Assembly (NCBI GenBank): GCA_041649575.1
Contig: JBAZMW010000001.1
Location: forward strand, 154,711 to 218,710
Length of the DNA: 64,000 bases
Origin: Patescibacteria group bacterium
GTDB lineage: Bacteria; Patescibacteriota; Patescibacteriia; 2-01-FULL-39-33
Direction of reading: 5' to 3'
A program made the position numbers and the translations under genes. Under the pieces are notes generated by a model. It was not told the origin of the DNA. It did not search any database and worked only from the letters and a program-made list of their open reading frames with translations. Shown one piece after another: positions 3,612-45,853 of the stretch; position 1 is the stretch's first letter, and every line of letters starts with the position of its first letter.

Positions 3612-5738
3612 TTAATTCGCGGCATATTCAAAATTATTATTTTTTTCGATAAAGCTGGTGGTAAAAACATTGGTGGTTAGCGCCAGTATTTCGGCCTGGC
3701 CATCACTGTCAATGTCGCTCGCCAGCGGCTTGACGCCTTCGCGTTTTTGCGGATTGTAGGCCAGCCAAGAATTTAACAACCTGCCTTGCTGATTGAAAAT
3801 TTTTATCTCCGGGCTACCGCCGAATCCAGGACCGGTGATGATCTCGTCTTGGCCGTCGCCGTTAACATCGCCGCAAGCGACATTGACGCCGCCGGCAAAT
3901 TTTTTATCGTAAGCGAAGAAACCCATTGACAATAGTTTACCACGATTATCAAAGATTTTCACATGAGGCCCGCCAGGACTGGAGGCGCCAACAACAATTT
4001 CGCTCTGGCCGTCGCCGTTAACATCGCCAGCAGCTACATTAACTCCCATTTTAGTCCAAGCTTTATTATAGGCATAAAAGCTGGTTGGTTTTGTTTTCCC
4101 TTGCCAGTTGAAAATTTTGACCAAATTAGCGCCGCCGGTTTCCGGGCCAGTGATAATCTCTTGCCAGCCATCATTATCCAAATCGGCGACGGCCAGAGAT
4201 AGGCCGCCGGCAAACTTAGAGCCATAAGGATAAAATTCGGCAATATTCTCTTGAGCGCTGTTATAAATTGTTATTTTATTTTTGGCGGCTACCAAAAATT
4301 CTTTTTGACCGTCATTATTCAAATCGGTTTTGCTGATTTTATTGCCTCCCAGAAACAGTGAAACATAAGCAAAGAAGCCATTTCTCACGGTGTGTCCATA
4401 AGCATTAAAAGGTCTGGCAAAAGAACCATTAGCAAAAACGCCATCTTCGATTTCCGCTAGCGGTCTCAAAAGAATGACGCCATCGCCGGCTTCCAGCGAT
4501 AGTTTATCAAGACGCGAGCCATTGTTTATTTCTGGGTCTTGGATGCCGTGTATTTTCTCGTATTCCGAGTCAAAGCTGACGGTTTGTTTTTTGTCGGTTG
4601 AATTTACAATAGCCACGCCGTTGGCAAAATCTCTTTGCCACAAGCCGGGCTGGAGATTATTGTTCGAAGTCAGGAGGTTTTTAGGAGAGGATTTGGCCGG
4701 ACCTAAGTTGACGTCATATTCGTCGTACCACCAAAAGTGCTCTCTTAGCTGGGTTCCAAAATTAAAACCATAATAGCCATTATAGAGCAGAGCACTGGCC
4801 AGTCCAAAGCGCATCAACTGGTAATTGGTACGATTGCCGGTATTATCGGTGTCAACGTTGATAATATTTAGACGCGGCAGATAGCCAGAATTATTGGTAT
4901 CGCGGTAGCGTTTCATCGAGCCATCCCAGCCACCTTCCCAATATTCGGGAAAACCTTCAAACATCCGGCCATTAAGATCCAAGTATGGGCCGTCGCCATT
5001 GCCGACAATCAGATATTTATCGCCAAATTTGTTTCTTAGATTTTTAAACAGATTTTTATAACCTTCTTGCCAAAGACGATCGATTTTTTCGGCGGAATCC
5101 AGATAACCGTCAGCGTCAATATCGATGCGCGAATTAACCCAGGAGACGTTTTGCCAGACATTGTCGAGCAGCAAGCCGTCCCAAAGGCCGGTGGCCAGCA
5201 CTTTATTCTGATAGAAGTCGGCTAAATAATCGGCATAAGACTTTCCGAGCCGGTTTTTGACATAAAGATTCATGGAAATATTGCCCGGCCAGAAAGAGAT
5301 ATTTTCTCCAGCCACGGTTTTCAATTGCCAGCGGGGGTCGCTCTCCTTGGCCAAGGTGTGCCACAGGCCAGCGCCTTGCGGCTCAACCACTGATAGCCTT
5401 TCGAGCGGGATTTCGTTGGCGGAAGTATAGGCCAAAATAACAATCCTGGGGTTTAGTTTCCTGATTAGTTTGATTTCTTGCTGACTAGTGCTTTGAGCCT
5501 GCATATCCAGAGCCAACAGATCATAAGCAGCCAGCTTAACAGCCTCTTCTTGAGTGATTGGAGTTTTCCAATATAAATTGACGGTACGAGGAAAGTTATA
5601 ACTAAGCAAATCGACAGCTAAAAGCGACTTAAGCGGCAGAAGAATGGCGCTGAAAAAAGCCGCTAAAATCAAACTGCCGGCCAGAATTTTTTGCCAAAGC
5701 TTTATTTGCAAGTTGGTTTTGGGAAACAAAACAAACAT
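3612..5738 (-). CDS. Membrane-anchored protein with a glycoside-hydrolase-like (TIM-barrel GHL-type) central domain and C-terminal FG-GAP/VCBS repeats
   Basis: N-terminal TM segment. C-terminal repeats DLDNDGWQEIITGPETGG..KIF, GDVNGDGQSEIVVGASSPGGPHVKIF and GDVNGDGQDEIITGPGFGGSPEIKIF are typical FG-GAP. The GH-like assignment for the middle domain is weaker. Confidence 0.55.
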   Translation of the reverse strand: MFVLFPKTNLQIKLWQKILAGSLILAAFFSAILLPLKSLLAVDLLSYNFPRTVNLYWKTPITQEEAVKLAAYDLLALDMQAQSTSQQEIKLIRKLNPRIVILAYTSANEIPLERLSVVEPQGAGLWHTLAKESDPRWQLKTVAGENISFWPGNISMNLYVKNRLGKSYADYLADFYQNKVLATGLWDGLLLDNVWQNVSWVNSRIDIDADGYLDSAEKIDRLWQEGYKNLFKNLRNKFGDKYLIVGNGDGPYLDLNGRMFEGFPEYWEGGWDGSMKRYRDTNNSGYLPRLNIINVDTDNTGNRTNYQLMRFGLASALLYNGYYGFNFGTQLREHFWWYDEYDVNLGPAKSSPKNLLTSNNNLQPGLWQRDFANGVAIVNSTDKKQTVSFDSEYEKIHGIQDPEINNGSRLDKLSLEAGDGVILLRPLAEIEDGVFANGSFARPFNAYGHTVRNGFFAYVSLFLGGNKISKTDLNNDGQKEFLVAAKNKITIYNSAQENIAEFYPYGSKFAGGLSLAVADLDNDGWQEIITGPETGGANLVKIFNWQGKTKPTSFYAYNKAWTKMGVNVAAGDVNGDGQSEIVVGASSPGGPHVKIFDNRGKLLSMGFFAYDKKFAGGVNVACGDVNGDGQDEIITGPGFGGSPEIKIFNQQGRLLNSWLAYNPQKREGVKPLASDIDSDGQAEILALTTNVFTTSFIEKNNNFEYAAN

Positions 5739-5740
5739 CT

Positions 5741-6922
5741 TTAATTATTTAGGTTTAGTAATTGGCTATAAATAGCTGACAATGCCTGGTAATGCTGTTG
5801 TGGATTGTATTTTGTTGCCGCCAGCTCTCTGGCCTTTAGGCCGAGCTTTTTTATCTTTTCACGATCGCCCGCTAATTCCATAATAGCATTTTTTAGGGCA
5901 GTCGGGTTGTCCGGCTCAAAAAGCAAACCAGTATCCTCGCTGACAATTTCCGGCACTGCTCCGACACGAGCGGCCACTACTGGCTTGAAACAGCCGTAAC
6001 TTTCCAAAATACTCAAACCAAAAGTCTCATGGACGCGTGACGGGAAAACAGTAAACAAACTTCTGGCGATAAGTTTGGTTAGTTCAGTACCGGTTTTGCG
6101 GCCGACAAACTGTATCCGGCCGGCTAAGCCAGACTCGGCAGCCAAGGCTTTTAGTTCATCTTCTTGCGGCCCGCCGCCGGCAATTTTTAATTTGATGTCC
6201 GGGATTTCTTTTAGAGCCCTGATTAATAAATCCACGCCCTTGCTTTCGTCGAGGCGGCCGAAAAACAGCAAGTAATCTTCCGCTGGCAGTGGCTGGGCCG
6301 GATAAGATTTCAGATCAATAAAATGCGGCAGGATTTGAATTTTTTCTTTTTTGAAGTTGGCTTTCAGTAGTTGATCTTTGACAAATTGCGAGGGGGCGAT
6401 AAAAAGATCGATATTATTCTGATAAATTTTTAGCAGTTTATGAAAATTGAACTCCAGCTTCAAAATCCAGGCGATAAGAGAAGAATTCTTGTGTTTGGTT
6501 GGTTTGTTGTCGGCACGCAAAGTATAATCCGGTTTAACCAGCTTGAAATCATGCACGGTCATTACTATTGGCAGGCCGGCTTGTTTGAGAACCGGCAAAA
6601 TAGAGGGAGAAAGCTGATGATAAATGTTGTGCAAATGGACGATTTGCGGCCGGTCGGCCTTAATCAGCCGGCTGATTTTTCTGCGAGCCGAGAGTGACCA
6701 AAACATCCTGGGGATTTTCATAGCGCTTCTTAGACTGAATCGGCCCAGCTCCCAATCGGTAAGAAAATATTTTTCTTGTCCGCTGTTGATATTTTTGGGA
6801 TTTTTTTGGGAGAAGTAAATTATCTCGTGGCCATGACCAGTCAAGAGGCGGCTTAAATTGAACAGGTAGGCTTCGGCGCCGCCGCGAGGATAGAGAAATT
6901 TATTGACTTGGAGGATTTTCAT
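5741..6922 (-). CDS. Glycosyltransferase family 4 (GT-B fold)
   Basis: C-terminal motif ...VFPSRVHETFGLSILESYGCFKPVVAARVGAVPEIV..GLLFEP, the typical GT4 E-X7-E region. Confidence 0.75.
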   Translation of the reverse strand: MKILQVNKFLYPRGGAEAYLFNLSRLLTGHGHEIIYFSQKNPKNINSGQEKYFLTDWELGRFSLRSAMKIPRMFWSLSARRKISRLIKADRPQIVHLHNIYHQLSPSILPVLKQAGLPIVMTVHDFKLVKPDYTLRADNKPTKHKNSSLIAWILKLEFNFHKLLKIYQNNIDLFIAPSQFVKDQLLKANFKKEKIQILPHFIDLKSYPAQPLPAEDYLLFFGRLDESKGVDLLIRALKEIPDIKLKIAGGGPQEDELKALAAESGLAGRIQFVGRKTGTELTKLIARSLFTVFPSRVHETFGLSILESYGCFKPVVAARVGAVPEIVSEDTGLLFEPDNPTALKNAIMELAGDREKIKKLGLKARELAATKYNPQQHYQALSAIYSQLLNLNN

Positions 6923-6931
6923 AAAATAGCG

Positions 6932-8428
6932 TTAGCCGTTTGTTTCCGCAGGCAGTTTTTGGTTGTTAATTATTTTTCCGGTGCGAATCAGACCCAGAAT
7001 CAGCCAAAAGAAGACGCCGGTTAGATTAGTTTCCAGATAAGGCTGGAACAGGCTGGCAAAAATCAGGGCAGTAAGACAAGCGACTAGACCCAGGTAGTAA
7101 GGATTTAAGTCCTCGTTTAAAAAAATTTTTTTCCAACTCTTGGCCAAGACCGTGGCGATGACTAATAAAAAAAGCAAGAGACCAATAATTCCCATTTGCA
7201 CTAAAATAGCTAGTAGCGAGTTGTGGATATTGCGGACCTCTTCGAAGGTGTGCCAATCTGGCAGTTCCAGGGGGATTTTAAGACCGAAGCCTACCCCCAA
7301 AAAAGGATTAAGCAGCCAGACTCTTTGAGCCGTCTGCCACAAACTGATCCGCCAGCTGGCGCTGGTGTCGCCGGCGGTATTTAAGATAGAAACGACGCGT
7401 TCTTTCAGGTCGCCGCCGTAGTTGTTGATTCCTTCTGGCAAGCCCTGTAGCGGCAGAAGGTTGACTACCAGAACAACCAGGACAACAATGCTGGCCAAAA
7501 CCATAAGATTTTTAAGGCCATAGCCGATTAGCTTTTTTCGGTTGGTTTTGGGGGCGATAAAAAGAAGCACTAAGGCGCCAACAACCAAAGCCAGCCAGAG
7601 GTGTCGCATCAAGGAGACGGCAATCCCCAGGCCCCAAAGCCACAAAACCAGGCTGGGCAAGCTATTGTTATAGAAACGTTTGGCAGCCAGTAAACTCAAA
7701 ATTATTAAAAAAGTTAGAACCAGATAGAAGGCATGAGTTCCGGCCAAGAGGCGGACGCCGCCGGTGGAGAGGGGAGTAAATTCAGTCCACAATCCCTGGC
7801 CTCTGAAAAAACCGATAGCAATAAAAACAATCAGCGCCAAGCCGCTTAAAATCATAATATGAATGAGGTTCTTAAATTTTTTACTGTCTTGAATAATATA
7901 TATAACCAAGAAGTAGAGAATCGGATAAAAAGCGTAATTTTTGAAACTGCTGAAAACTACGGCCGGATCGGCGTTAATATCTATCAGACCGCGCAAAAAG
8001 TAGAGGCCGGTCAGGGCCATGAAAAGCAAGAGGATTTTTTCCGGGGCTTCCAAAAATAATTTGGGACGACTTTTTCTGTAAAAAATATTAATTAATAGTG
8101 CCAGACCGGTAATCAAAATAACAAGGTCGAGCGGATAAATTTTGTAGGCGGCTTGTTCTATGACCAGTGACTGCAGAGTGAAAAAGCGCTCAAAGATCAT
8201 GGTCAGACAAACAATTATTCCCAGCCCGAGAGAGTTGAGGGGCAAAATAAAAATAGCGGCGACAACGACAAAGAGGATAAAAATCAAAGGCGAAAAACTG
8301 AAATAGATTATGCCGATAACAAAAGCGGCCAGATAGATATAGGCCACTATGTTGTAAAGCAGAGTCCAATTAGGCGTCCGGCGCGGTGGACTCTTCTTAG
8401 CGGTTAGGTTTTTATTTTTACCAGTCAT
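6932..8428 (-). CDS. Polytopic membrane protein, O-antigen ligase/polymerase (Wzy_C-like) family
   Basis: At least 10 predicted TM helices with a large loop; sits in an operon with a GT and a Wzz-like protein. Confidence 0.5.
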   Translation of the reverse strand: MTGKNKNLTAKKSPPRRTPNWTLLYNIVAYIYLAAFVIGIIYFSFSPLIFILFVVVAAIFILPLNSLGLGIIVCLTMIFERFFTLQSLVIEQAAYKIYPLDLVILITGLALLINIFYRKSRPKLFLEAPEKILLLFMALTGLYFLRGLIDINADPAVVFSSFKNYAFYPILYFLVIYIIQDSKKFKNLIHIMILSGLALIVFIAIGFFRGQGLWTEFTPLSTGGVRLLAGTHAFYLVLTFLIILSLLAAKRFYNNSLPSLVLWLWGLGIAVSLMRHLWLALVVGALVLLFIAPKTNRKKLIGYGLKNLMVLASIVVLVVLVVNLLPLQGLPEGINNYGGDLKERVVSILNTAGDTSASWRISLWQTAQRVWLLNPFLGVGFGLKIPLELPDWHTFEEVRNIHNSLLAILVQMGIIGLLLFLLVIATVLAKSWKKIFLNEDLNPYYLGLVACLTALIFASLFQPYLETNLTGVFFWLILGLIRTGKIINNQKLPAETNG

Positions 8429-19156: not shown

Positions 19157-19262
19157 TTGTCATCGCGAGGGAGCGTAAGCGACCGTCCGCCTAGGTTTAG
19201 CGAGATAGGTGGCAATCTCGCGGGATTGCTTCGCTAAGCTCGCAATGACAATTAGTAATTAA
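19157..19262. repeat. Large imperfect inverted repeat built from two copies of a ~40-nt unit (TTGTCATYGCGAGG.AGC..AAGCGAC...) plus an inner hairpin GCGAGATaggtggcaATCTCGC
   Basis: Left arm 19157-19193 is the reverse complement of right arm 19215-19259 with few mismatches. A third, single-arm copy lies inside cysS (41887..41929). Confidence 0.6.
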
Positions 19263-23793: not shown

Positions 23794-24162
23794 ATGTTAC
23801 TGGACTGCGGGGCTTATCTCGAATTACCGGGCAATCTTCAGCGTGAGCTGGCTAGGCCACTGGCCGAGCTCAATCAGGAGCTCGGAAATCTCTGGCAGCG
23901 AGTAGGCGCCCTGGAAGAAGGACAAGGGGACTACCGAGCACTCGCCCAGGAAGTCTTTGAACAGCTTCTGGCCGAGGTCAAGATGTGGGTCAGAGGCATC
24001 GCCGCGCGGGAAGTATTGGACAGCGGCAGGCAGGCCGAACTTGCCAGGGCAGCCCGCAACTTCCAACTGCGGGTGATCGAGGCGGTTTATACTCTGGGGA
24101 TAGAGTTTTCCTCTACCGTGCTGGTGGAAGAACCATCGGCGGCAGCAGCGGTTGTCGGCTGA
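23794..24162 (+). CDS. GC-rich islet ORF, 122-aa predicted alpha-helical protein of unknown function
   Basis: SD cAAGGAGGatctggccATG; about 58% GC against the ~38% host; followed by a rho-independent terminator. Confidence 0.5.
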   Translation: MLLDCGAYLELPGNLQRELARPLAELNQELGNLWQRVGALEEGQGDYRALAQEVFEQLLAEVKMWVRGIAAREVLDSGRQAELARAARNFQLRVIEAVYTLGIEFSSTVLVEEPSAAAAVVG

Positions 24163-25209: not shown

Positions 25210-25632
25210 CTAGGCGGCCGGTGTTTTAACAGTTCTTAATGCTTCTAGATGCGTCCGGCATTGCTCGGCGAGCTTCTGGGCGGTTTCATACATTCTCATA
25301 TCGGCCGCATGTTCCGCCTCATCTTCCTGTCTGGCTTGCGCGACCATTTCATCGGAGACTCTGGCTTTTGCTTCAGCGATTTTCTCCGCGTCGCCGGTCG
25401 TCAGTTCTTCTATCTCGCCCGCCAAAGTCCTGGGGTTGATATAAGCCAGTTGTGGCTTTGTCATGCCCTCAAGCTCTTTGATCAGGTCTTCCAGAAGAAC
25501 CATTGAGACCCTGTCGATGATGGTTTCCGGGGTGTCTCCCTCTCGCAGGTTGATGTGGGCGTCACCGGGAGCGCCAACGCCCCCTACGCCCACATTAATT
25601 GAGCTGATTGTCCGCGCGCTGTCGTCTGGCAT
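25210..25632 (-). CDS. GC-rich islet ORF, 140-aa acidic helical protein of unknown function
   Basis: SD AAGGAGGGttacttATG on the minus strand; about 56% GC. Hairpin CTCTCTCCTTTggttcAAGGAGAGAG at 25149-25174, between the fpg stop and this gene's 3' end. Confidence 0.45.
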   Translation of the reverse strand: MPDDSARTISSINVGVGGVGAPGDAHINLREGDTPETIIDRVSMVLLEDLIKELEGMTKPQLAYINPRTLAGEIEELTTGDAEKIAEAKARVSDEMVAQARQEDEAEHAADMRMYETAQKLAEQCRTHLEALRTVKTPAA

Positions 25633-40837: not shown

Positions 40838-42265
40838 ATGCCAAAAATTTATAACACCTTAACTCGCAAAAAAGAAGAATTTGAACCACTTAAAGACAAA
40901 GTGGTTACTTTTTATCAATGCGGTCCGACGGTTTATTGGACACAGCATATCGGCAATATGCGAGCCATGGTTTTGGCGGATTTGATTAGGCGTTCGCTGG
41001 AATATTTGGGTTATAAAGTGAAGTTTGCCAGAAATTATACCGATGTCGGCCACTTGACCAGCGATGAAGACGAAGGCGAGGATAAAATGGCCAAGGCCGC
41101 TAGTAGGGAAAAATTAACGCCGGAAGAAATCGCGGATAAATATATTGGAATTTTTGAACAGGACGTGAAGGCCCTGAATTGCGAGGAGCCAACTTATGAG
41201 CCACAAGCCACCAAGTATATAAAAGAGATGCAAAAAATGGTGCAAACCTTGATTGACAGGGGCTATGCTTATGCCACTGATTTGGCGATTTATTTTGATG
41301 TTAATTATTATATTGAAAAAGGCGGGGATTATACTGGTCTGTCCGGCCAGGATTTAGAAAAAAATATTACTAATGCCGGCAAGGGCGAAGTAAGTGACAA
41401 GCAAAAAAAGAAGCCGCAGGATTTTGCAATCTGGTTTTTTAAAGTCGGTGAACACCAAAATGCTTTGCAGACTTGGGACAGCGAGTTCAAATTGCCTGAC
41501 GGGCAAAGCATAAAAAAAGAAGGTTTTCCGGGCTGGCATTTGGAATGTTCGGCGATGAACAAGGCGCTATTTGGCGATACGATTGATATTCACATGGGCG
41601 GCATTGAACATGTTCCGGTGCATCACACCAATGAGATTGCCCAGAGCGAGGCGGCCAACGGCAAGAGGTTTGTAAATTATTGGCTGCATAATGAGCATTT
41701 GACGATTGACGGTGGAAAGATGTCTAAATCTGAAGGCACAGCCTATTCTTTGGCAGATATTAGAGCCAAGGGACTTGACTCGCTGGTTTTGAGATACTTC
41801 TTTTTGCAGGCGCATTATCGCAGCAAACAAAATTTTACTTGGAAGGCATTGGAGTCGGCCAGTGTGGCTTTGAATAATTTAAAGAATGTCATTGCGAGGA
41901 GCAAAGCGACGAAGCAATCCCGTGGCAATATAAGCGAAGAGTTTAAACAAAAATTTACTGCCGTTTTGGGTGATGATTTCAATATTCCGCAGGCCTTATC
42001 TATTGTTTGGGAAATATTAAAATCGAATTTGCATGATGAGGACAAGGTGGCGACTATTTTGGATTTTGATAAAGTTTTGGGCTTAGGACTTGATAAAATT
42101 AAGGCAGAAGAGATTCCGCAGGCGGTAATTGATTTGGCCGAGGAGAGACTGAAAGTCAGGCAGGACAAGGATTTTAAAAAATCTGATGAGTTGAGAGAGA
42201 AGATGAAAGAGACGGGTTGGGAGATAGAGGATGAGAAGGAAGGATATAAATTAAAGAAGTTATAA
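40838..42265 (+). CDS. cysS: Cysteine--tRNA ligase
   Basis: HIGN (TQHIGNMRA) and KMSKS motifs, CysRS Zn ligands; 475 aa. Confidence 0.9.
   Translation: MPKIYNTLTRKKEEFEPLKDKVVTFYQCGPTVYWTQHIGNMRAMVLADLIRRSLEYLGYKVKFARNYTDVGHLTSDEDEGEDKMAKAASREKLTPEEIADKYIGIFEQDVKALNCEEPTYEPQATKYIKEMQKMVQTLIDRGYAYATDLAIYFDVNYYIEKGGDYTGLSGQDLEKNITNAGKGEVSDKQKKKPQDFAIWFFKVGEHQNALQTWDSEFKLPDGQSIKKEGFPGWHLECSAMNKALFGDTIDIHMGGIEHVPVHHTNEIAQSEAANGKRFVNYWLHNEHLTIDGGKMSKSEGTAYSLADIRAKGLDSLVLRYFFLQAHYRSKQNFTWKALESASVALNNLKNVIARSKATKQSRGNISEEFKQKFTAVLGDDFNIPQALSIVWEILKSNLHDEDKVATILDFDKVLGLGLDKIKAEEIPQAVIDLAEERLKVRQDKDFKKSDELREKMKETGWEIEDEKEGYKLKKL
41887..41929 (+). repeat. In-frame copy of the 19157-family palindromic repeat unit inside cysS (GTCATTGCGAGGAGCAAAGCGACGAAGCAATCCCGTGGCAATA)
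   Basis: Shares GTCATTGCGAG and AGCGAAGCAATCCCG blocks, in the same order, with 19157..19262. Confidence 0.5.
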
Positions 42266-42277
42266 ATAAAATTTTTA

Positions 42278-42325
42278 GACAAATTTAATACCGGAAAGTC
42301 GCTGGCGCAACCTTCCAGTATAGTG
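42278..42325. repeat. Direct repeat copy 1 (TTTAGACAAATTTAATACCGGARRGTCGCTKGCGCAACCYYCCRGTAT), hairpin-containing, immediately 3' of the minus-strand 122-aa gene
   Basis: Differs from 42782..42829 at 5 positions. Contains inverted TACCGG..CCGGTA arms and a TTGCGCAA palindrome. Confidence 0.7.
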
Positions 42326-42348
42326 TTTACCGTGCATTATAATCCAGC

Positions 42349-42717
42349 TCACTCTACTTGAGCATTGATTTCTGCTGTAATGCCGGAGTACAACTTGTGG
42401 CGTTCCGGCCCCACGATAAATGAGAGAGCGACAAACCCCAGTACAGTTTTATTATGTTTGTATCGAATGTTCCGGCAAAGCCTTTTCATGATGCCATGTA
42501 AGTACACTGGGTGAGAGCGAATCAAGGCACGGCGAGTGCGTGGGTCCTGCCATTCTTTCAACACCTCCCATGCTTTTTGTTCGTCGTATTTTTGACTTTC
42601 TTGTAATGCCTGGCGTAATTCGTCCGCATAGTCGCGGCGAAAGTTGTCGATCTCTGCGATCGACAAGACTATTGGCACCCCATCATCCATTTCCCCGTTT
42701 CCACTTTCCGTTCCCAT
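42349..42717 (-). CDS. GC-rich island gene 1, 122-aa hypothetical protein
   Basis: SD AGGAGGGatcgtcATG; about 57% GC; no recognisable motif. Confidence 0.55.
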   Translation of the reverse strand: MGTESGNGEMDDGVPIVLSIAEIDNFRRDYADELRQALQESQKYDEQKAWEVLKEWQDPRTRRALIRSHPVYLHGIMKRLCRNIRYKHNKTVLGFVALSFIVGPERHKLYSGITAEINAQVE

Positions 42718-42781
42718 GACGATCCCTCCTGTTGTAGGTACTGTTTTTAGTCTATCAGATGGTTTTAAAATAGTAAAATTT

Positions 42782-42829
42782 ATATTTAGACAAATTTAAT
42801 ACCGGAGGGTCGCTTGCGCAACCTCCCGG
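42782..42829. repeat. Direct repeat copy 2, immediately 3' of the minus-strand 475-aa gene
   Basis: See copy 1. Preceded on the gene side by a second small hairpin ATCGCCgtcaGGCGAT. Confidence 0.7.
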
Positions 42830-42858
42830 TATGTTGATGTACGATCGCCTGACGGCGA

Positions 42859-44286
42859 TTAGTTGAGAGCGACTGCCTCCTGCCTGCCCTCGGTGCTCAG
42901 GACCACATGGTCCTCCTCGAGCCTTAGCACGGCGATGGCGGCGCTGCCCGCGCTCTCATAGGCGTGGTTCTCGTAGATCAGCCGCGGCTCCTGGCCCGGC
43001 ACCATGACATAGAGCTCATAGCGTAGTTGCGGGTCGGCGATGCGGTGATCGATCTGCTCCTCGGCCACGAAGACCGCCAGGCCCAGTCGCGCGCTTATGA
43101 TCCTGTGCCGTACCGACGGCGTGCGGTAGGACACTTGGCCGGGAGTCCCCATCGGCATCTGTATGACTACGCCGTACTTCTGATCCCCGTAGTCTTGGTA
43201 CATCTTTGGCTTCAGGCGCCAAGATGCCATCTTTTGCGCCAGGATCTGGGCGATCGCCGCGTCCACCTCGCCCTCAAAGGCGGCCTGCTCGGTCTCGTTG
43301 AGCTTGGGCGGACTCGGAGTCGCTTCAGTCGGCTCGAAGACAAACTCGGCGATGCGGTTGCCGTACTCCTCGTTGACGAGTTCGACGGTGATTTTCACCT
43401 GGCCGCCCCTTTCGTCAATTTGGATTTGCCCCAGGTCGTTGATGCACAAATCGTGCCGGTCGGCGCTACTGCTGTAGCGGTTGCGCCACTGCCATTCTTG
43501 CATCTGGTCTCGGCCGTGGTGGTAGATCACCACTTGATCGAAGTAGCCGATGCCGCCACTGCCACCCCACTCGCTTCGGGCTACCAGAAACACGGCCGTG
43601 TCGGGATCGAGCACCCTGACCTTCCCGATACTGCACCGCTCCATCTTCATCAACTCCTCAATGAACAACCGGAGCCGTGCCGACACTTCTTGCCCGCCGA
43701 GTACCTCGGCCAATGCCTCCTCATGACTCAACCGCGAGTCATCCTCCAGCAATGCTTTGACGCTGGCGGCGGCTTCGGCCAGCTCTTCCCGCTTCTGCTG
43801 GATTTGGCTGGCAAACTCTTCGCCACCGAGAAGAGCCAGCGCTTGGTGTGCGTCGGAGTAGGATTGCCGCCCGATCTCGTAAGTTTCCCGCGGGAAGTTG
43901 TCGGGGGGGAGCTCTTGTACCAAACTCCTGATGCCCAACTCATCGGTCAGGGCCAGGAACTTTTCCGTGAGCTTTCTTTCACAGCAACCACAACCATTCA
44001 TGGTCGGGTCGATTGCACTGAAGGCCTCGGCGATCGCCAGCCGGACCAGGGGATCGGGCTGGGCATTGATGGCCTTGACGATCCGCCCCCGTTCCTCGGC
44101 CGGCAATTCGCGGAGGCGTTGCACATACTTCCCGCCGCGCTGGCCATCGGCCATGGTCACAGGGATGCCGGTGACCTGCTGGGCAACTTGTAGGCAGACA
44201 GACAATTCCAACTGCCGCAGTTGTCGGCCAATCTCTTCCTCCACTTTCCGCGCTTCTTTCAGCGCTCTTTCTCTTTCCTTGTTCAT
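42859..44286 (-). CDS. GC-rich island gene 2, 475-aa hypothetical protein (no recognisable domain)
   Basis: SD GGAGGAGacaacaATG at 44286. The track's longer 509-aa version overlaps the upstream gene. Coiled-coil-like N-terminus (MNKERERALKEARKVEEEIGRQLRQL), a CGCC cluster, C-terminal beta-rich half. The antisense 388-aa ORF is Arg/Gly-rich and rejected. Confidence 0.6.
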   Translation of the reverse strand: MNKERERALKEARKVEEEIGRQLRQLELSVCLQVAQQVTGIPVTMADGQRGGKYVQRLRELPAEERGRIVKAINAQPDPLVRLAIAEAFSAIDPTMNGCGCCERKLTEKFLALTDELGIRSLVQELPPDNFPRETYEIGRQSYSDAHQALALLGGEEFASQIQQKREELAEAAASVKALLEDDSRLSHEEALAEVLGGQEVSARLRLFIEELMKMERCSIGKVRVLDPDTAVFLVARSEWGGSGGIGYFDQVVIYHHGRDQMQEWQWRNRYSSSADRHDLCINDLGQIQIDERGGQVKITVELVNEEYGNRIAEFVFEPTEATPSPPKLNETEQAAFEGEVDAAIAQILAQKMASWRLKPKMYQDYGDQKYGVVIQMPMGTPGQVSYRTPSVRHRIISARLGLAVFVAEEQIDHRIADPQLRYELYVMVPGQEPRLIYENHAYESAGSAAIAVLRLEEDHVVLSTEGRQEAVALN

Positions 44287-44308
44287 TGTTGTCTCCTCCG
44301 TTCGTCGC

Positions 44309-44606
44309 CTAGTGCGCGAACGCGTTGAGAAACTTTGCCAGCTCCCTCGGCTCTTTCTTGGAATGCCGAAGGAATCTGACGCACGCACCCACTAACTCTG
44401 CTCCGAAATTCTCTTCCCGGCAGGCGATAGCGTACCACCTGGCTGCCAGCGCCTTTTTGCGTTTGCCGGTCCTGGCTAGGACCAGATTATACGCCTTGGA
44501 AGGACTGGTAGCAGACTCGGTGAGGTTGAGCAGTTCGGGTACGGCCCAAACCGCCTTGGCGCGTGCCAATAACTCGATCAGACGCTTGACGTCTTTTGGT
44601 GTCATG
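44309..44606 (-). CDS. GC-rich island gene 3, 98-aa basic helical protein (possible small regulator/partner)
   Basis: SD AGGAAAGGAGcaagccATG; 20-bp gap to gene 2; a probable operon with it. Confidence 0.5.
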
Positions 44607-44773
44607 GCTTGCTCCTTTCCTCTGTAAGGTGCTATCAAGCTGATTGCCAGCTTAACTAATAATTATATCATATTATAACATAATTGTCAATGGTATTTTG
44701 TTATTTTATTTAAATTTAGCCAAAAATAATAAGTATTTTTGCCAAAAGTAGCAATTTGAATTAAAATATAGTT

Positions 44774-45853
44774 ATGAATTTTTGGAAAAAAATAAAAAAG
44801 CCCTGCCTATCCGGCAGGCAGGCGATTTTGGCTCTAGCCCCAATGGCTGGGGTTTCTGATTCGGCTTTTCGACAGGTCTGCAGAGAGTATGGCGCCGATG
44901 TAGTCTATACCGAAATGGTATCGGCCGACGGCCTTTTTTATGATTCCAAAAAAACTTTGGAATTTTTAAAATTCAATAAAAAAGAACATCCGGTGGTAAT
45001 TCAGCTGTTTGGCAAACAGTCTGAAAGATTCACTAAGGCCGCGCAAATTTGCGAGCAAGCCGGCTTTGACGGTATTGATATTAATTTTGGTTGTCCGGCC
45101 AAAAAAGTTGCTGGCCATGGCGGCGGAGTGACGCTGATGCGCGATTTGCCAAAGTGTCGAGAAATCATTGAGGCGGTTTTGGCTGGCACCAAGTTGCCGG
45201 TATCGGTGAAGTTGAGATCTAGTATTAATGTCAGGGGTTTGCCATGGCAAACCCCTGCATGCGGCAACCTGGTGACAGCTTTGGATTTTATAAAATTTAT
45301 GAAAGATTTGCCGCTCTCGGCAGTGATGATTCATGGCCGGCCATACGAAAACCCTTTCAATGCCGAAATAGATTATGAGATGATTAAGAAATGCGTTGAA
45401 TTTATAAAAAATAATTATTATTTAATGACACGGGATTGCCACCTGTCTCGCCGAGCCAAGGCGGACGCTCCGCTCGCAATGACAGCGCCAATAGTTTTGG
45501 GTAATGGCGGTATTAAGACACCAGAAGATGCAAAAAGAATGTTGGAACAAACCGGCGCCGATGGTGTTGGGCTGGCTCGCGGGCTTTATGGCCGGCCGTG
45601 GCTGTTTCGGCAAATTAAAGACTATTTAAAGAAAGGAAAATACAGTAATCTAAAACTAGAAGAGATAAAAAAAATTATTTTAGAGCATGCTAAATTGGCT
45701 TTTGAAAACAAGGATAAACACGGCATAGTGGAATTAAGGAAGCATTTGGCTTGGTATATTACTGGCCAGCCTGGCGCCAGAGAGTTAAGGGCTAAGTTGG
45801 TACGGGTGGAAGATGTAAAAGAAATAAAAGCGATTTTAAAGTATTTAAAATAA
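44774..45853 (+). CDS. dusB: tRNA-dihydrouridine synthase (Dus family)
   Basis: LAPMAGVSDSAFR...VDINFGCP...catalytic Cys region; FMN-binding TIM barrel. Confidence 0.8.
   Translation: MNFWKKIKKPCLSGRQAILALAPMAGVSDSAFRQVCREYGADVVYTEMVSADGLFYDSKKTLEFLKFNKKEHPVVIQLFGKQSERFTKAAQICEQAGFDGIDINFGCPAKKVAGHGGGVTLMRDLPKCREIIEAVLAGTKLPVSVKLRSSINVRGLPWQTPACGNLVTALDFIKFMKDLPLSAVMIHGRPYENPFNAEIDYEMIKKCVEFIKNNYYLMTRDCHLSRRAKADAPLAMTAPIVLGNGGIKTPEDAKRMLEQTGADGVGLARGLYGRPWLFRQIKDYLKKGKYSNLKLEEIKKIILEHAKLAFENKDKHGIVELRKHLAWYITGQPGARELRAKLVRVEDVKEIKAILKYLK

Follow-up and report, generated by a model that had tools for sequence, protein, structure and literature searches.

Between cysS and dus, in the 64,000-nucleotide (nt) stretch of DNA analyzed here (the window), lies a GC-rich island of three minus-strand genes and a repeated hairpin. 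The window is a segment of a Patescibacteria (candidate phyla radiation, CPR) chromosome that carries the dcw cluster, secA, cysS and dus and has a mean GC content of 45%. The reading we favor, and consider probable, is that the island is a moron-like accessory operon, complete in itself and settled for a long time at the cysS-dus site, whose terminator was doubled when a lineage-specific orphan gene came with a second copy. The operon would be old and compositionally foreign, and would form a transcription unit of its own, with a sigma-70 promoter, a stem-loop in the 5' untranslated region (5'-UTR), strong ribosome-binding sites, the genes for proteins of 98 and 475 amino acids (P98 and P475), and, as terminator, an RNA hairpin. 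This terminator would be the 48-51-nt repeat, acting on minus-strand transcripts through a 14-15-bp hairpin and a 17-22-nt A/T-rich tail. The orphan gene, P122, would have been added downstream at a later time, ending in its own slightly diverged copy of the terminator, to give the arrangement gene(s)-hairpin-gene-hairpin. The features of the locus, in window coordinates, are:

40838-42265, plus strand: cysS, one flank of the island
42271-42321, minus strand: repeat copy RA, lying 5 nt away from the cysS stop codon, with its hairpin at 42288-42321 and the same tail as RB; situated between two convergent genes, and the proposed terminator for P122
42349-42717, minus strand: P122, a 122-amino-acid orphan of 48% GC with the Shine-Dalgarno sequence AGGAGGG, bracketed by repeat copies RB and RA
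42782-42832, minus strand: repeat copy RB, a 34-nt hairpin (42799-42832) and the invariant A/T-rich tail; proposed terminator of P98-P475
42845-42858, minus strand: small hairpin immediately past the P475 stop, with the gene-strand sequence TCGCC-GTCA-GGCGA, from sequence and fold
42859-44286, minus strand: P475, 475 amino acids, a helical/coiled-coil N-terminal half with a CGCC cluster, then two beta-rich domains
44309-44605, minus strand: P98, 98 amino acids, all-helical, first gene of the operon, with the invariant family motif TGKRKKALAARW
44637-44653, minus strand: 5'-UTR stem-loop with the gene-strand sequence AAGCTGGCAATCAGCTT; next comes the conserved leader and Shine-Dalgarno sequence TTACAGAGGAAAGGAGCAAGCC-ATG
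44662-44690, minus strand: sigma-70-type promoter of the P98-P475 operon (TTGACA, 17 nt, TATAAT, with a TG extension), matching 12 of 12 consensus positions
44774-45853, plus strand: dus, the opposite flank

The original prediction, made from the sequence of the window, had placed three minus-strand genes of 122, 475 and 98 amino acids between cysS and dus and had given all of them strong Shine-Dalgarno sequences; the open reading frames (ORFs) are located there, and each has such a sequence. They are arranged as the P98-P475 operon, RB, P122, RA and then cysS, and precomputed Pfam matches within 10 kb on either side identify cysS, murF, dus and corA as neighbors. The 98- and 475-amino-acid genes are indeed close together, with a gap of 22 nt rather than the 20 bp proposed. 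The GC content of about 57% ascribed to all three genes did not hold: P475 has 60.6% (76.5% at third codon positions, GC3), P98 has 56.6% and P122 only 48.2%, and the flanking cysS and dus have 41.9% and 43.4%. P475 is the strongest GC3 outlier among 50 ORFs of the window (0.765; mean 0.506, standard deviation 0.084).

The control elements of the operon recur at related loci, which were fetched from other genomes or assemblies and are designated here by L-numbers. A promoter equivalent to that of the operon, TTGACA-N17-TAnAAT, lies upstream of the P98 homologues in L003, L011, L013 and L023. The 5'-UTR stem-loop has a counterpart in L003, AAGCCGATGGTCGGCTT, at an equivalent position and with compensatory changes, and other P98 loci have a 5'-UTR hairpin of different sequence followed by the conserved leader TTACAGGAAAGGAGCAcGCC-ATG; the stem-loop may have an mRNA-stabilizing or regulatory role. 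The small hairpin after the P475 stop is matched in L003 by GTCGCT-AGTCG-AGCGAC after the stop of its homologue. A search of 42200-44800 against Rfam, with gathering and E-value thresholds, returned nothing relevant. An inverted repeat pairing 42866-42888 with 44813-44835 (23 nt, 74% complementary) is coding on both sides and was treated as chance.

The age of the island can be judged from L003 (GCA_041650015.1, Patescibacteria), where the syntenic order is DnaX, a TraG-like protein, CorA, Dus, a P98 homologue that was not called as a gene, a P475 homologue of 459 amino acids, and CysS. At the dus-cysS site this genome thus has the P98 and P475 homologues and one hairpin, and no P122. Its island has a GC content of 53-60% against about 43% for its locus. 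The island proteins of the two genomes are 72% (P98) and 57% (P475) identical, and the flanking proteins 68% (CysS), 66% (Dus), 63% (CorA), 72% (TraG-like) and 57% (DnaX). Since island and flank proteins have diverged in step, the island appears to predate the split of the two genomes, and its presence in their common ancestor is the most parsimonious reading of the comparison. The island is old yet still GC-rich, without amelioration toward the composition of its host. The gene pair has kept about 60% GC (GC3 76%) in a genome of about 45% GC throughout the divergence of its flanks; simple amelioration predicts otherwise.

Phage morons are transcription units that stand independently, each having a promoter and a terminator to itself and a GC content unlike that of its neighbors (PMC3594210). 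The P98-P475 operon resembles them in its own consensus promoter and proposed terminator, in its placement as an extra unit between conserved genes, and in its GC content of 57-61% against 42-43% in cysS and dus. It differs from them in that it is not part of a prophage, with no phage genes, PHROG matches or IMG/VR relatives found, and in that it sits between housekeeping genes of a Patescibacteria chromosome, where it has been retained across a deep split.

The repeat as a candidate terminator

The direct repeat is 51 nt long, and its two copies (42271-42321 and 42782-42832) are 88% identical, differing at 6 of the 51 positions. The original prediction had described it as a 48-bp repeat, and its existence is borne out: the degenerate 48-mer has exactly two matches, at 42274-42321 and 42785-42832, and none in 100 shuffles. 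The coordinates first given were off by 3-4 nt, and the repeat extends to 51 nt. The TTGCGCAA palindrome and perfect TACCGG/CCGGTA arms reported for both copies are found only in that at 42785-42832, the cysS-side copy reading TGGCGCAA and CCAGTA. The idea that a repeat follows each gene needs a similar correction, as a copy follows each of two transcription units, P98-P475 and P122, rather than each of three genes.

Sequence inspection and folding give a hairpin of 34 nt, an uninterrupted 14-15-bp helix with a 4-nt loop. L003 has a single copy, between its P475 homologue and the convergent cysS, which reads ACCGGAGGGTTGC-CAGCA-GCAACCCTCCGGT and then ATTAAATTTGTCTAAAATAT. In alignment, the three known copies (RA, RB and L003) vary in the stem and share a block of 22 nt without any change, TCCGGTATTAAATTTGTCTAAA. 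RB and the L003 copy have identical 3' stem arms, from which the arm of RA differs, and this makes RA the more likely of the two to be the copy associated with P122.

A pattern search found no third copy in the 64-kb window, and a covariance model built from the three copies and run on the window and 13 related loci recovered its training copies only. A possible degenerate third copy upstream of P98 (about 44712-44760 in the window, about 9556-9580 in L003) was rejected, as its score was reached by 57-184 of 2000 shuffles and it forms no hairpin. The 19-mer of the tail, GGTATTAAATTTGTCTAAA, has six matches among species-representative genomes; these all fall in unrelated taxa, none lies next to a hairpin, and we attribute them to chance; the exact 19-mer is absent from the Patescibacteria among 185,579 such genomes and has 0 matches in IMG/VR. 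The repeat differs in this from dispersed extragenic palindromes, such as repetitive extragenic palindromic sequences (REP), bacterial interspersed mosaic elements (BIME) and miniature inverted-repeat transposable elements (MITE), which have many scattered copies; here there are two in 64 kb.

The hairpin is formed preferentially by RNA of the gene (minus) strand. On this strand RA folds with -23.7 kcal/mol (z -4.3) and RB with -24.0 kcal/mol (z -4.8), and on the cysS strand the values are -12.1 kcal/mol (z -0.7) for RA and -19.4 kcal/mol (z -2.1) for RB. Counted over the three copies, 39 of 42 stem cells contain standard pairs when read as the gene strand, compared with 35 of 42 for the opposite one. 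The better folding of the gene strand arises because mismatches become G·U there: four one-sided stem substitutions each make a G·U pair in gene-strand RNA, where the opposite strand has C·A. G·U wobble pairing counts for RNA, and not for duplex or cruciform DNA. With G·U confined to the gene strand, selection therefore seems to have acted on the element as a structure within transcripts of the island genes; the asymmetry of pairing between strands looks like a directional argument rather than proof.

The position of the hairpin is also consistent with termination. It begins 27 nt past the stop codon of P475, and likewise past that of P122, and in all the homologous modules examined, at L004, L011, L013, L016, L017 and L026, a GC-rich hairpin and a T-rich stretch lie 10-60 nt after the last gene; several of these module-end hairpins are textbook terminators. 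The arrangement resembles that of intrinsic (Rho-independent) terminators between convergent genes, in which a GC-rich RNA stem-loop 27-60 nt after the stop is followed by a U/A-rich stretch; P122 or P475 is convergent with cysS, and homologous operons have canonical versions at the same position. It differs from them in its interrupted U-tract, in a 22-nt tail that is invariant across diverged genomes, and in its reuse after an unrelated orphan gene, which leaves P122 bracketed by direct repeats. On balance the repeat is most likely an RNA terminator hairpin of the operon, present twice, with its termination activity inferred from sequence and fold. Of the two readings first offered for it, a shared terminator and an integron-like site, the former is upheld by the RNA-strand-specific hairpin and by the canonical terminators at the same position in homologues, and the latter is not.

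Several points weigh against this interpretation. In the tract that follows the stem, UAUUAAAUUUGUCU, U occupies 8 of 14 positions in an interrupted rather than a clean run, and a consensus terminator scan did not call the repeat hairpin. Covariation over three sequences has no statistical power, 349 of 500 shuffles attaining the observed values. The 22-nt tail is identical in the three copies though CysS is only 68% identical between the genomes; conservation of this degree exceeds the usual need of a terminator and hints at an additional role, for example in protein binding or as a recombination core. The exact bracketing of P122, together with the direct repeats round homologous modules described below, fits site-specific insertion at least as well as duplication. 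Finally, the functions proposed below for the proteins are wholly inferred.

The doubling of the terminator would most plausibly have come about by recombination at the terminator during capture of the P122 unit. Capture of P122 with its terminator at an existing terminator would leave the observed pattern; so would a recombination between two copies that deleted P122 from L003, and this may equally be what happened. A duplicated terminator would in itself be ordinary biology, and the cargo is less ordinary.

P98-led modules in other genomes

None of the three proteins had been assigned to a known family, and this stands after searches of Pfam, NCBIfam, PHROGs, PADLOC and the PDB. P98, P475 and P122 gave only noise in the first four (DUF7342, E 0.022; RT-TIR_XII, 0.005; Csx16, 0.039); PDB profile searches gave nothing significant, and PDB sequence and fold searches were uninformative. 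The NCBI label of P475 is 'MAG: hypothetical protein WC518_00955 [Patescibacteria group bacterium]' (MAG, metagenome-assembled genome). The P98 and P475 families nevertheless have confident predicted folds, with a predicted local distance difference test score (pLDDT) of 92. Of the features noticed in P475 at the outset, the CGCC cluster is present in its sequence, and its AlphaFold model has long N-terminal helices, where a coiled-coil N-terminus had been noted, and a beta-rich C-terminal half. The cluster (NGCGCCER) is partly conserved within the family, and the beta-rich domains carry the conserved motifs SRSEWGGSGG, QWRDRY, EEQIDH and EDHxY.

The P475 family has 242 cluster representatives in public data, and a Pfam search of 76 members gave one Response_reg fusion, one SGNH match and one marginal scaffold match. 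The P98 profile found 3 loci only in a metagenome scan, and IMG/VR yielded no relatives to profiles of P98 and P475. P122, in contrast to these families, is a true orphan: a search among 5.8 billion proteins returned only P122 itself, and tblastn against all fetched related loci found nothing, in keeping with its absence from L003.

P98 is the first gene of a compact module in every locus found. It lies directly upstream of a P475-family gene in the window, L003, L016 (467 amino acids), L022, L026 (468 amino acids) and L028 (431 amino acids); the partner in L022 has 287 amino acids and consists of the C-terminal domain only. In L011, L013, L017, L023 and L025 it is followed by an unrelated second gene of 71-239 amino acids. 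Pfam gave no family for these unrelated partners, and PHROGs gave nothing for the P98 neighbors in L017, L013 and L023. The genes for P98 and P475 thus form a conserved pair, found in Patescibacteria-like genomes and often accompanied by a stand-alone receiver. A receiver (Response_reg) gene of this kind lies within the module in L022, L026 and L028, and one also adjoins P0003; this linkage, with the one Response_reg fusion, hints at phosphorylation-dependent control. The 141-amino-acid partner in L011 was called receiver-like by eye, a call that has no Pfam or phmmer support and is not relied on.

The modules sit between differing housekeeping genes, at bipA, mraY-murD, smpB-infC and rpsP, and at one site an RNase H gene lies beside what appears by eye to be an RNase P RNA gene. 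They are GC-richer than the host each time, for example 40-43% in a contig of 33% GC, and share their upstream parts: the sigma-70 promoter, a 5'-UTR hairpin of varying sequence and the leader before the ATG. Two uncharacterized families, with no informative match to a solved structure, thus form a conserved pair that is GC-richer than its host and placed between housekeeping genes at varied sites.

We propose that P98 may be a small nucleic-acid-binding or adaptor subunit of an accessory regulatory or effector module. A conflict module of the toxin-antitoxin-like or anti-phage kind, in which P98 is a small conserved regulator or antidote ahead of a polymorphic effector, would account for the small conserved first gene and its differing second genes (71, 141, 142, 183, 239, 287 and 431-475 amino acids), for sites that vary between housekeeping genes, for the association in L013 with an element that carries a large serine recombinase, and for a GC content that deviates from that of every host. 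Modules with a small first gene, such as type II toxin-antitoxin and adaptor-effector systems, share this gene order, the sizes, the variable partners, the patchy location and the occasional integrative element. We nonetheless regard a conflict role as unlikely. Nothing rose above noise in PADLOC, Pfam, NCBIfam or PHROGs, so that, in contrast to such systems, there is no match to known toxin, antitoxin, immunity or defense families, and viral contigs gave no relatives. The commonest partner, of 430-475 amino acids with two beta domains and often a stand-alone receiver besides, also differs from theirs. The pair has been retained at one locus throughout the divergence of two genomes, which is atypical of fast-turnover defense islands, and the recurrent link to receiver domains points to signaling. 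A receiver-controlled effector is a further possible role.

Some further features were observed around these modules. In two unrelated contigs a small GIY-YIG gene closely precedes the P98 module (L022 4165-4437 and L025 2765-2989), an adjacency that could be coincidence or a hint of homing-type mobility. Two different genomes have sequences in common at L016 7790-7830 and at L022 5716-5738, 7238-7254 and 7710-7732, namely a motif that follows the terminator after module genes, CTCTTTYTCCGAGATTT, and AAGTTCTTTGWKAAAA upstream of module promoters; such non-coding bookends appear to travel with the modules. L017 1-8305 (and L018) is a contig of 52% GC with orphan genes only, arranged as units and without Pfam or PHROG matches, in which blocks are reused: a promoter (178-219 and 4514-4555), a terminator-linker (1021-1113 and 7081-7172) and a 182-nt repeat (1622-1803 and 6291-6472).

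Recombination sites and cassettes

The cassette system first proposed for the island survives in one aspect: P122 is exactly bracketed by the repeat and is absent from L003, and homologous modules elsewhere are bracketed by long direct repeats. In L011 a perfect 35-nt direct repeat (100%), which has no hairpin, surrounds the module; in L022 a direct repeat of 48-80 nt (96%) surrounds P98, the P475 C-terminal-domain gene and the receiver; and in L023 a repeat of about 80 nt (84-94%) starts in the 3' arm of a terminator and brackets P98 and the gene for 239 amino acids. L013 has a 27-nt direct repeat around a 6.1-kb segment with a large serine recombinase and the P98 module. In L017 the same double-hairpin terminator-linker of about 110 nt follows two unrelated genes, and a promoter block is common to two units. 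None of the direct repeats at these other loci has sequence in common with the repeat of the window. The bracketing repeats show that P98 modules are accessory and have been repeatedly inserted, and they keep alive a minority reading in which a terminator or linker serves as a recombination substrate.

According to that reading, the hairpin and its tail would be a DNA-level, att-like site, and P122 with one copy would be an integrase-less cassette inserted by recombination at a pre-existing copy, either site-specifically in trans or by a RecA-dependent route; P98-led modules in general would move in this way. The bracketing of P122 by 51-nt direct repeats, with a single copy in the relative that lacks it, fits this account, as do the invariance of the 22-nt tail in three copies, the long repeats in L011, L022 and L023, the shared linker in L017 and the recombinase element in L013. 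We judge it improbable all the same, since no recombinase was found in the 64-kb window and the P98-P475 module itself is not bracketed by repeats in the window or in L003. The copies, moreover, differ at 6 of 51 positions, with stem changes that keep pairing in RNA and not in DNA; the repeats at other loci share no sequence with this one, and that of L011 lacks a hairpin; and the repeat was not found in species-representative genomes or viral contigs.

A broader form of the same idea is that P98-led modules are a new class of integrase-less cassettes in Patescibacteria, captured, exchanged and lost by recombination at terminator or linker sequences; each unit may then comprise a promoter, the conserved leader, P98, a variable cargo, and a hairpin terminator with a conserved tail. 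We hold this to be rather doubtful. If true, it would account for the bracketing repeats in several genomes, the repeat-bracketed P122 and the identical linkers after unrelated genes, and the persistent high GC would mark a shared pool of cassettes. Bracketing repeats that are recombination substrates would also offer a handle on how reduced, recombinase-poor genomes acquire accessory genes.

The integron-like reading of the original prediction, taken as an integron-type cassette array whose hairpins would be attC sites recombined by IntI, is largely refuted. Sites of this kind are defined by R''/L''-L'/R' boxes, an unpaired central spacer, extrahelical bases and a variable terminal structure, and a cluster of attC sites lacking an integron-integrase (CALIN) comprises two or more attC sites and needs no nearby intI (PMC4889954). 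The island has a superficial likeness to integron cassettes and CALIN as so described, in that an ORF followed by an imperfect palindromic repeat occurs in two tandem units with no integrase nearby (PMC4889954). The likeness ends there, and an integron or CALIN is very improbable. Inspection of sequence and fold found a continuous 14-15-bp helix with no R/L boxes, unpaired spacer or extrahelical bases, and no RYYYAAC/GTTRRRY at the stem base. The length of attC sites is roughly 57-141 nt, against 34 nt for the hairpin here. Integron cassettes are mostly promoterless and expressed from a common Pc, and the first unit of the island, P98-P475, has its own sigma-70 promoter with 12 of 12 consensus positions. 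The hairpin appears optimized as coding-strand RNA, its G·U mismatches being irrelevant to folded single-stranded DNA, and it has two copies only. The original prediction had counted confinement of the repeat to this locus against a cassette system, and this is essentially what was found, with two copies in the island and, in L003, a single one at the orthologous locus.

Integrase or recombinase genes, which were also to be sought nearby, were not found within the 64-kb window, neither IntI nor any other tyrosine recombinase. Precomputed Pfam matches within 10 kb on either side include no integrase, transposase or other recombinase, Pfam on 10 unassigned window ORFs gave none either, and reading the first 70 residues from each of the 50 largest window ORFs by eye turned up no candidate, the remaining ORFs beyond those 10 kb having been assigned by eye only. 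No phage genes were found, and the island proteins have no PHROG matches. A literature search for integrons or cassette islands in Patescibacteria or CPR found nothing relevant.

Least probable of all is that assembly produced a chimera here, or that the GC-rich segment is contamination derived from an organism of higher GC content. Such an origin might be suggested by the GC content, which changes abruptly at intergenic boundaries, from about 42% to about 60% and then back. Against it, three assemblies made independently agree at the junctions (an NCBI MAG contig, 244,907 bp long; a 126-kb ENA contig that is identical across both junctions; and the 3,075-bp Logan contig SRR8542065 (L002), from another run, which reaches from inside dus to inside cysS with 100% identity over both junctions), and the same architecture occurs in a second genome, L003, at 57-72% protein identity.

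Other features of the window

Apart from the island, the window contains a dispersed palindromic element, TGTCATTGCGAG ... GCAATCCCGYG, in three copies, at 41888-41925 (in cysS, plus strand), 45425-45483 (in dus, inverted) and 19222-19249 (inverted). Two of the copies are in-frame insertions: the cysS copy encodes VIARSKATKQSRG, and the dus copy adds about 22 residues that are absent from the Dus of L003. These two copies flank the island in inverted orientation, about 3.5 kb apart. The element is probably a MITE-like in-frame insertion unrelated to the island. The Dus N-terminus also has, at 44802-44822 (codons about 10-16), a 7-codon insertion, CLSGRQA, relative to L003, which forms a GC-rich hairpin with a T-run on the minus strand and was called terminator-like.

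Two small GC-rich orphans without Pfam matches, at 23794-24162 (plus strand, 59% GC) and 25210-25632 (minus strand, 55% GC), flank an fpg/mutM-like gene. A separate TTGACA-N17-TACAAT promoter and a canonical terminator belong to the first, whose Shine-Dalgarno leader, CAACAAGGAGGATC, resembles that of P122, ACAACAGGAGGGATC; the genome may contain several moron-like units. A second large compositional outlier of the window is a 59% GC ORF at 1-2055 on the minus strand, which runs off the window start and has repeated internal segments of about 290 nt and an apparent signal peptide; the region upstream of it contains a terminator-like hairpin.

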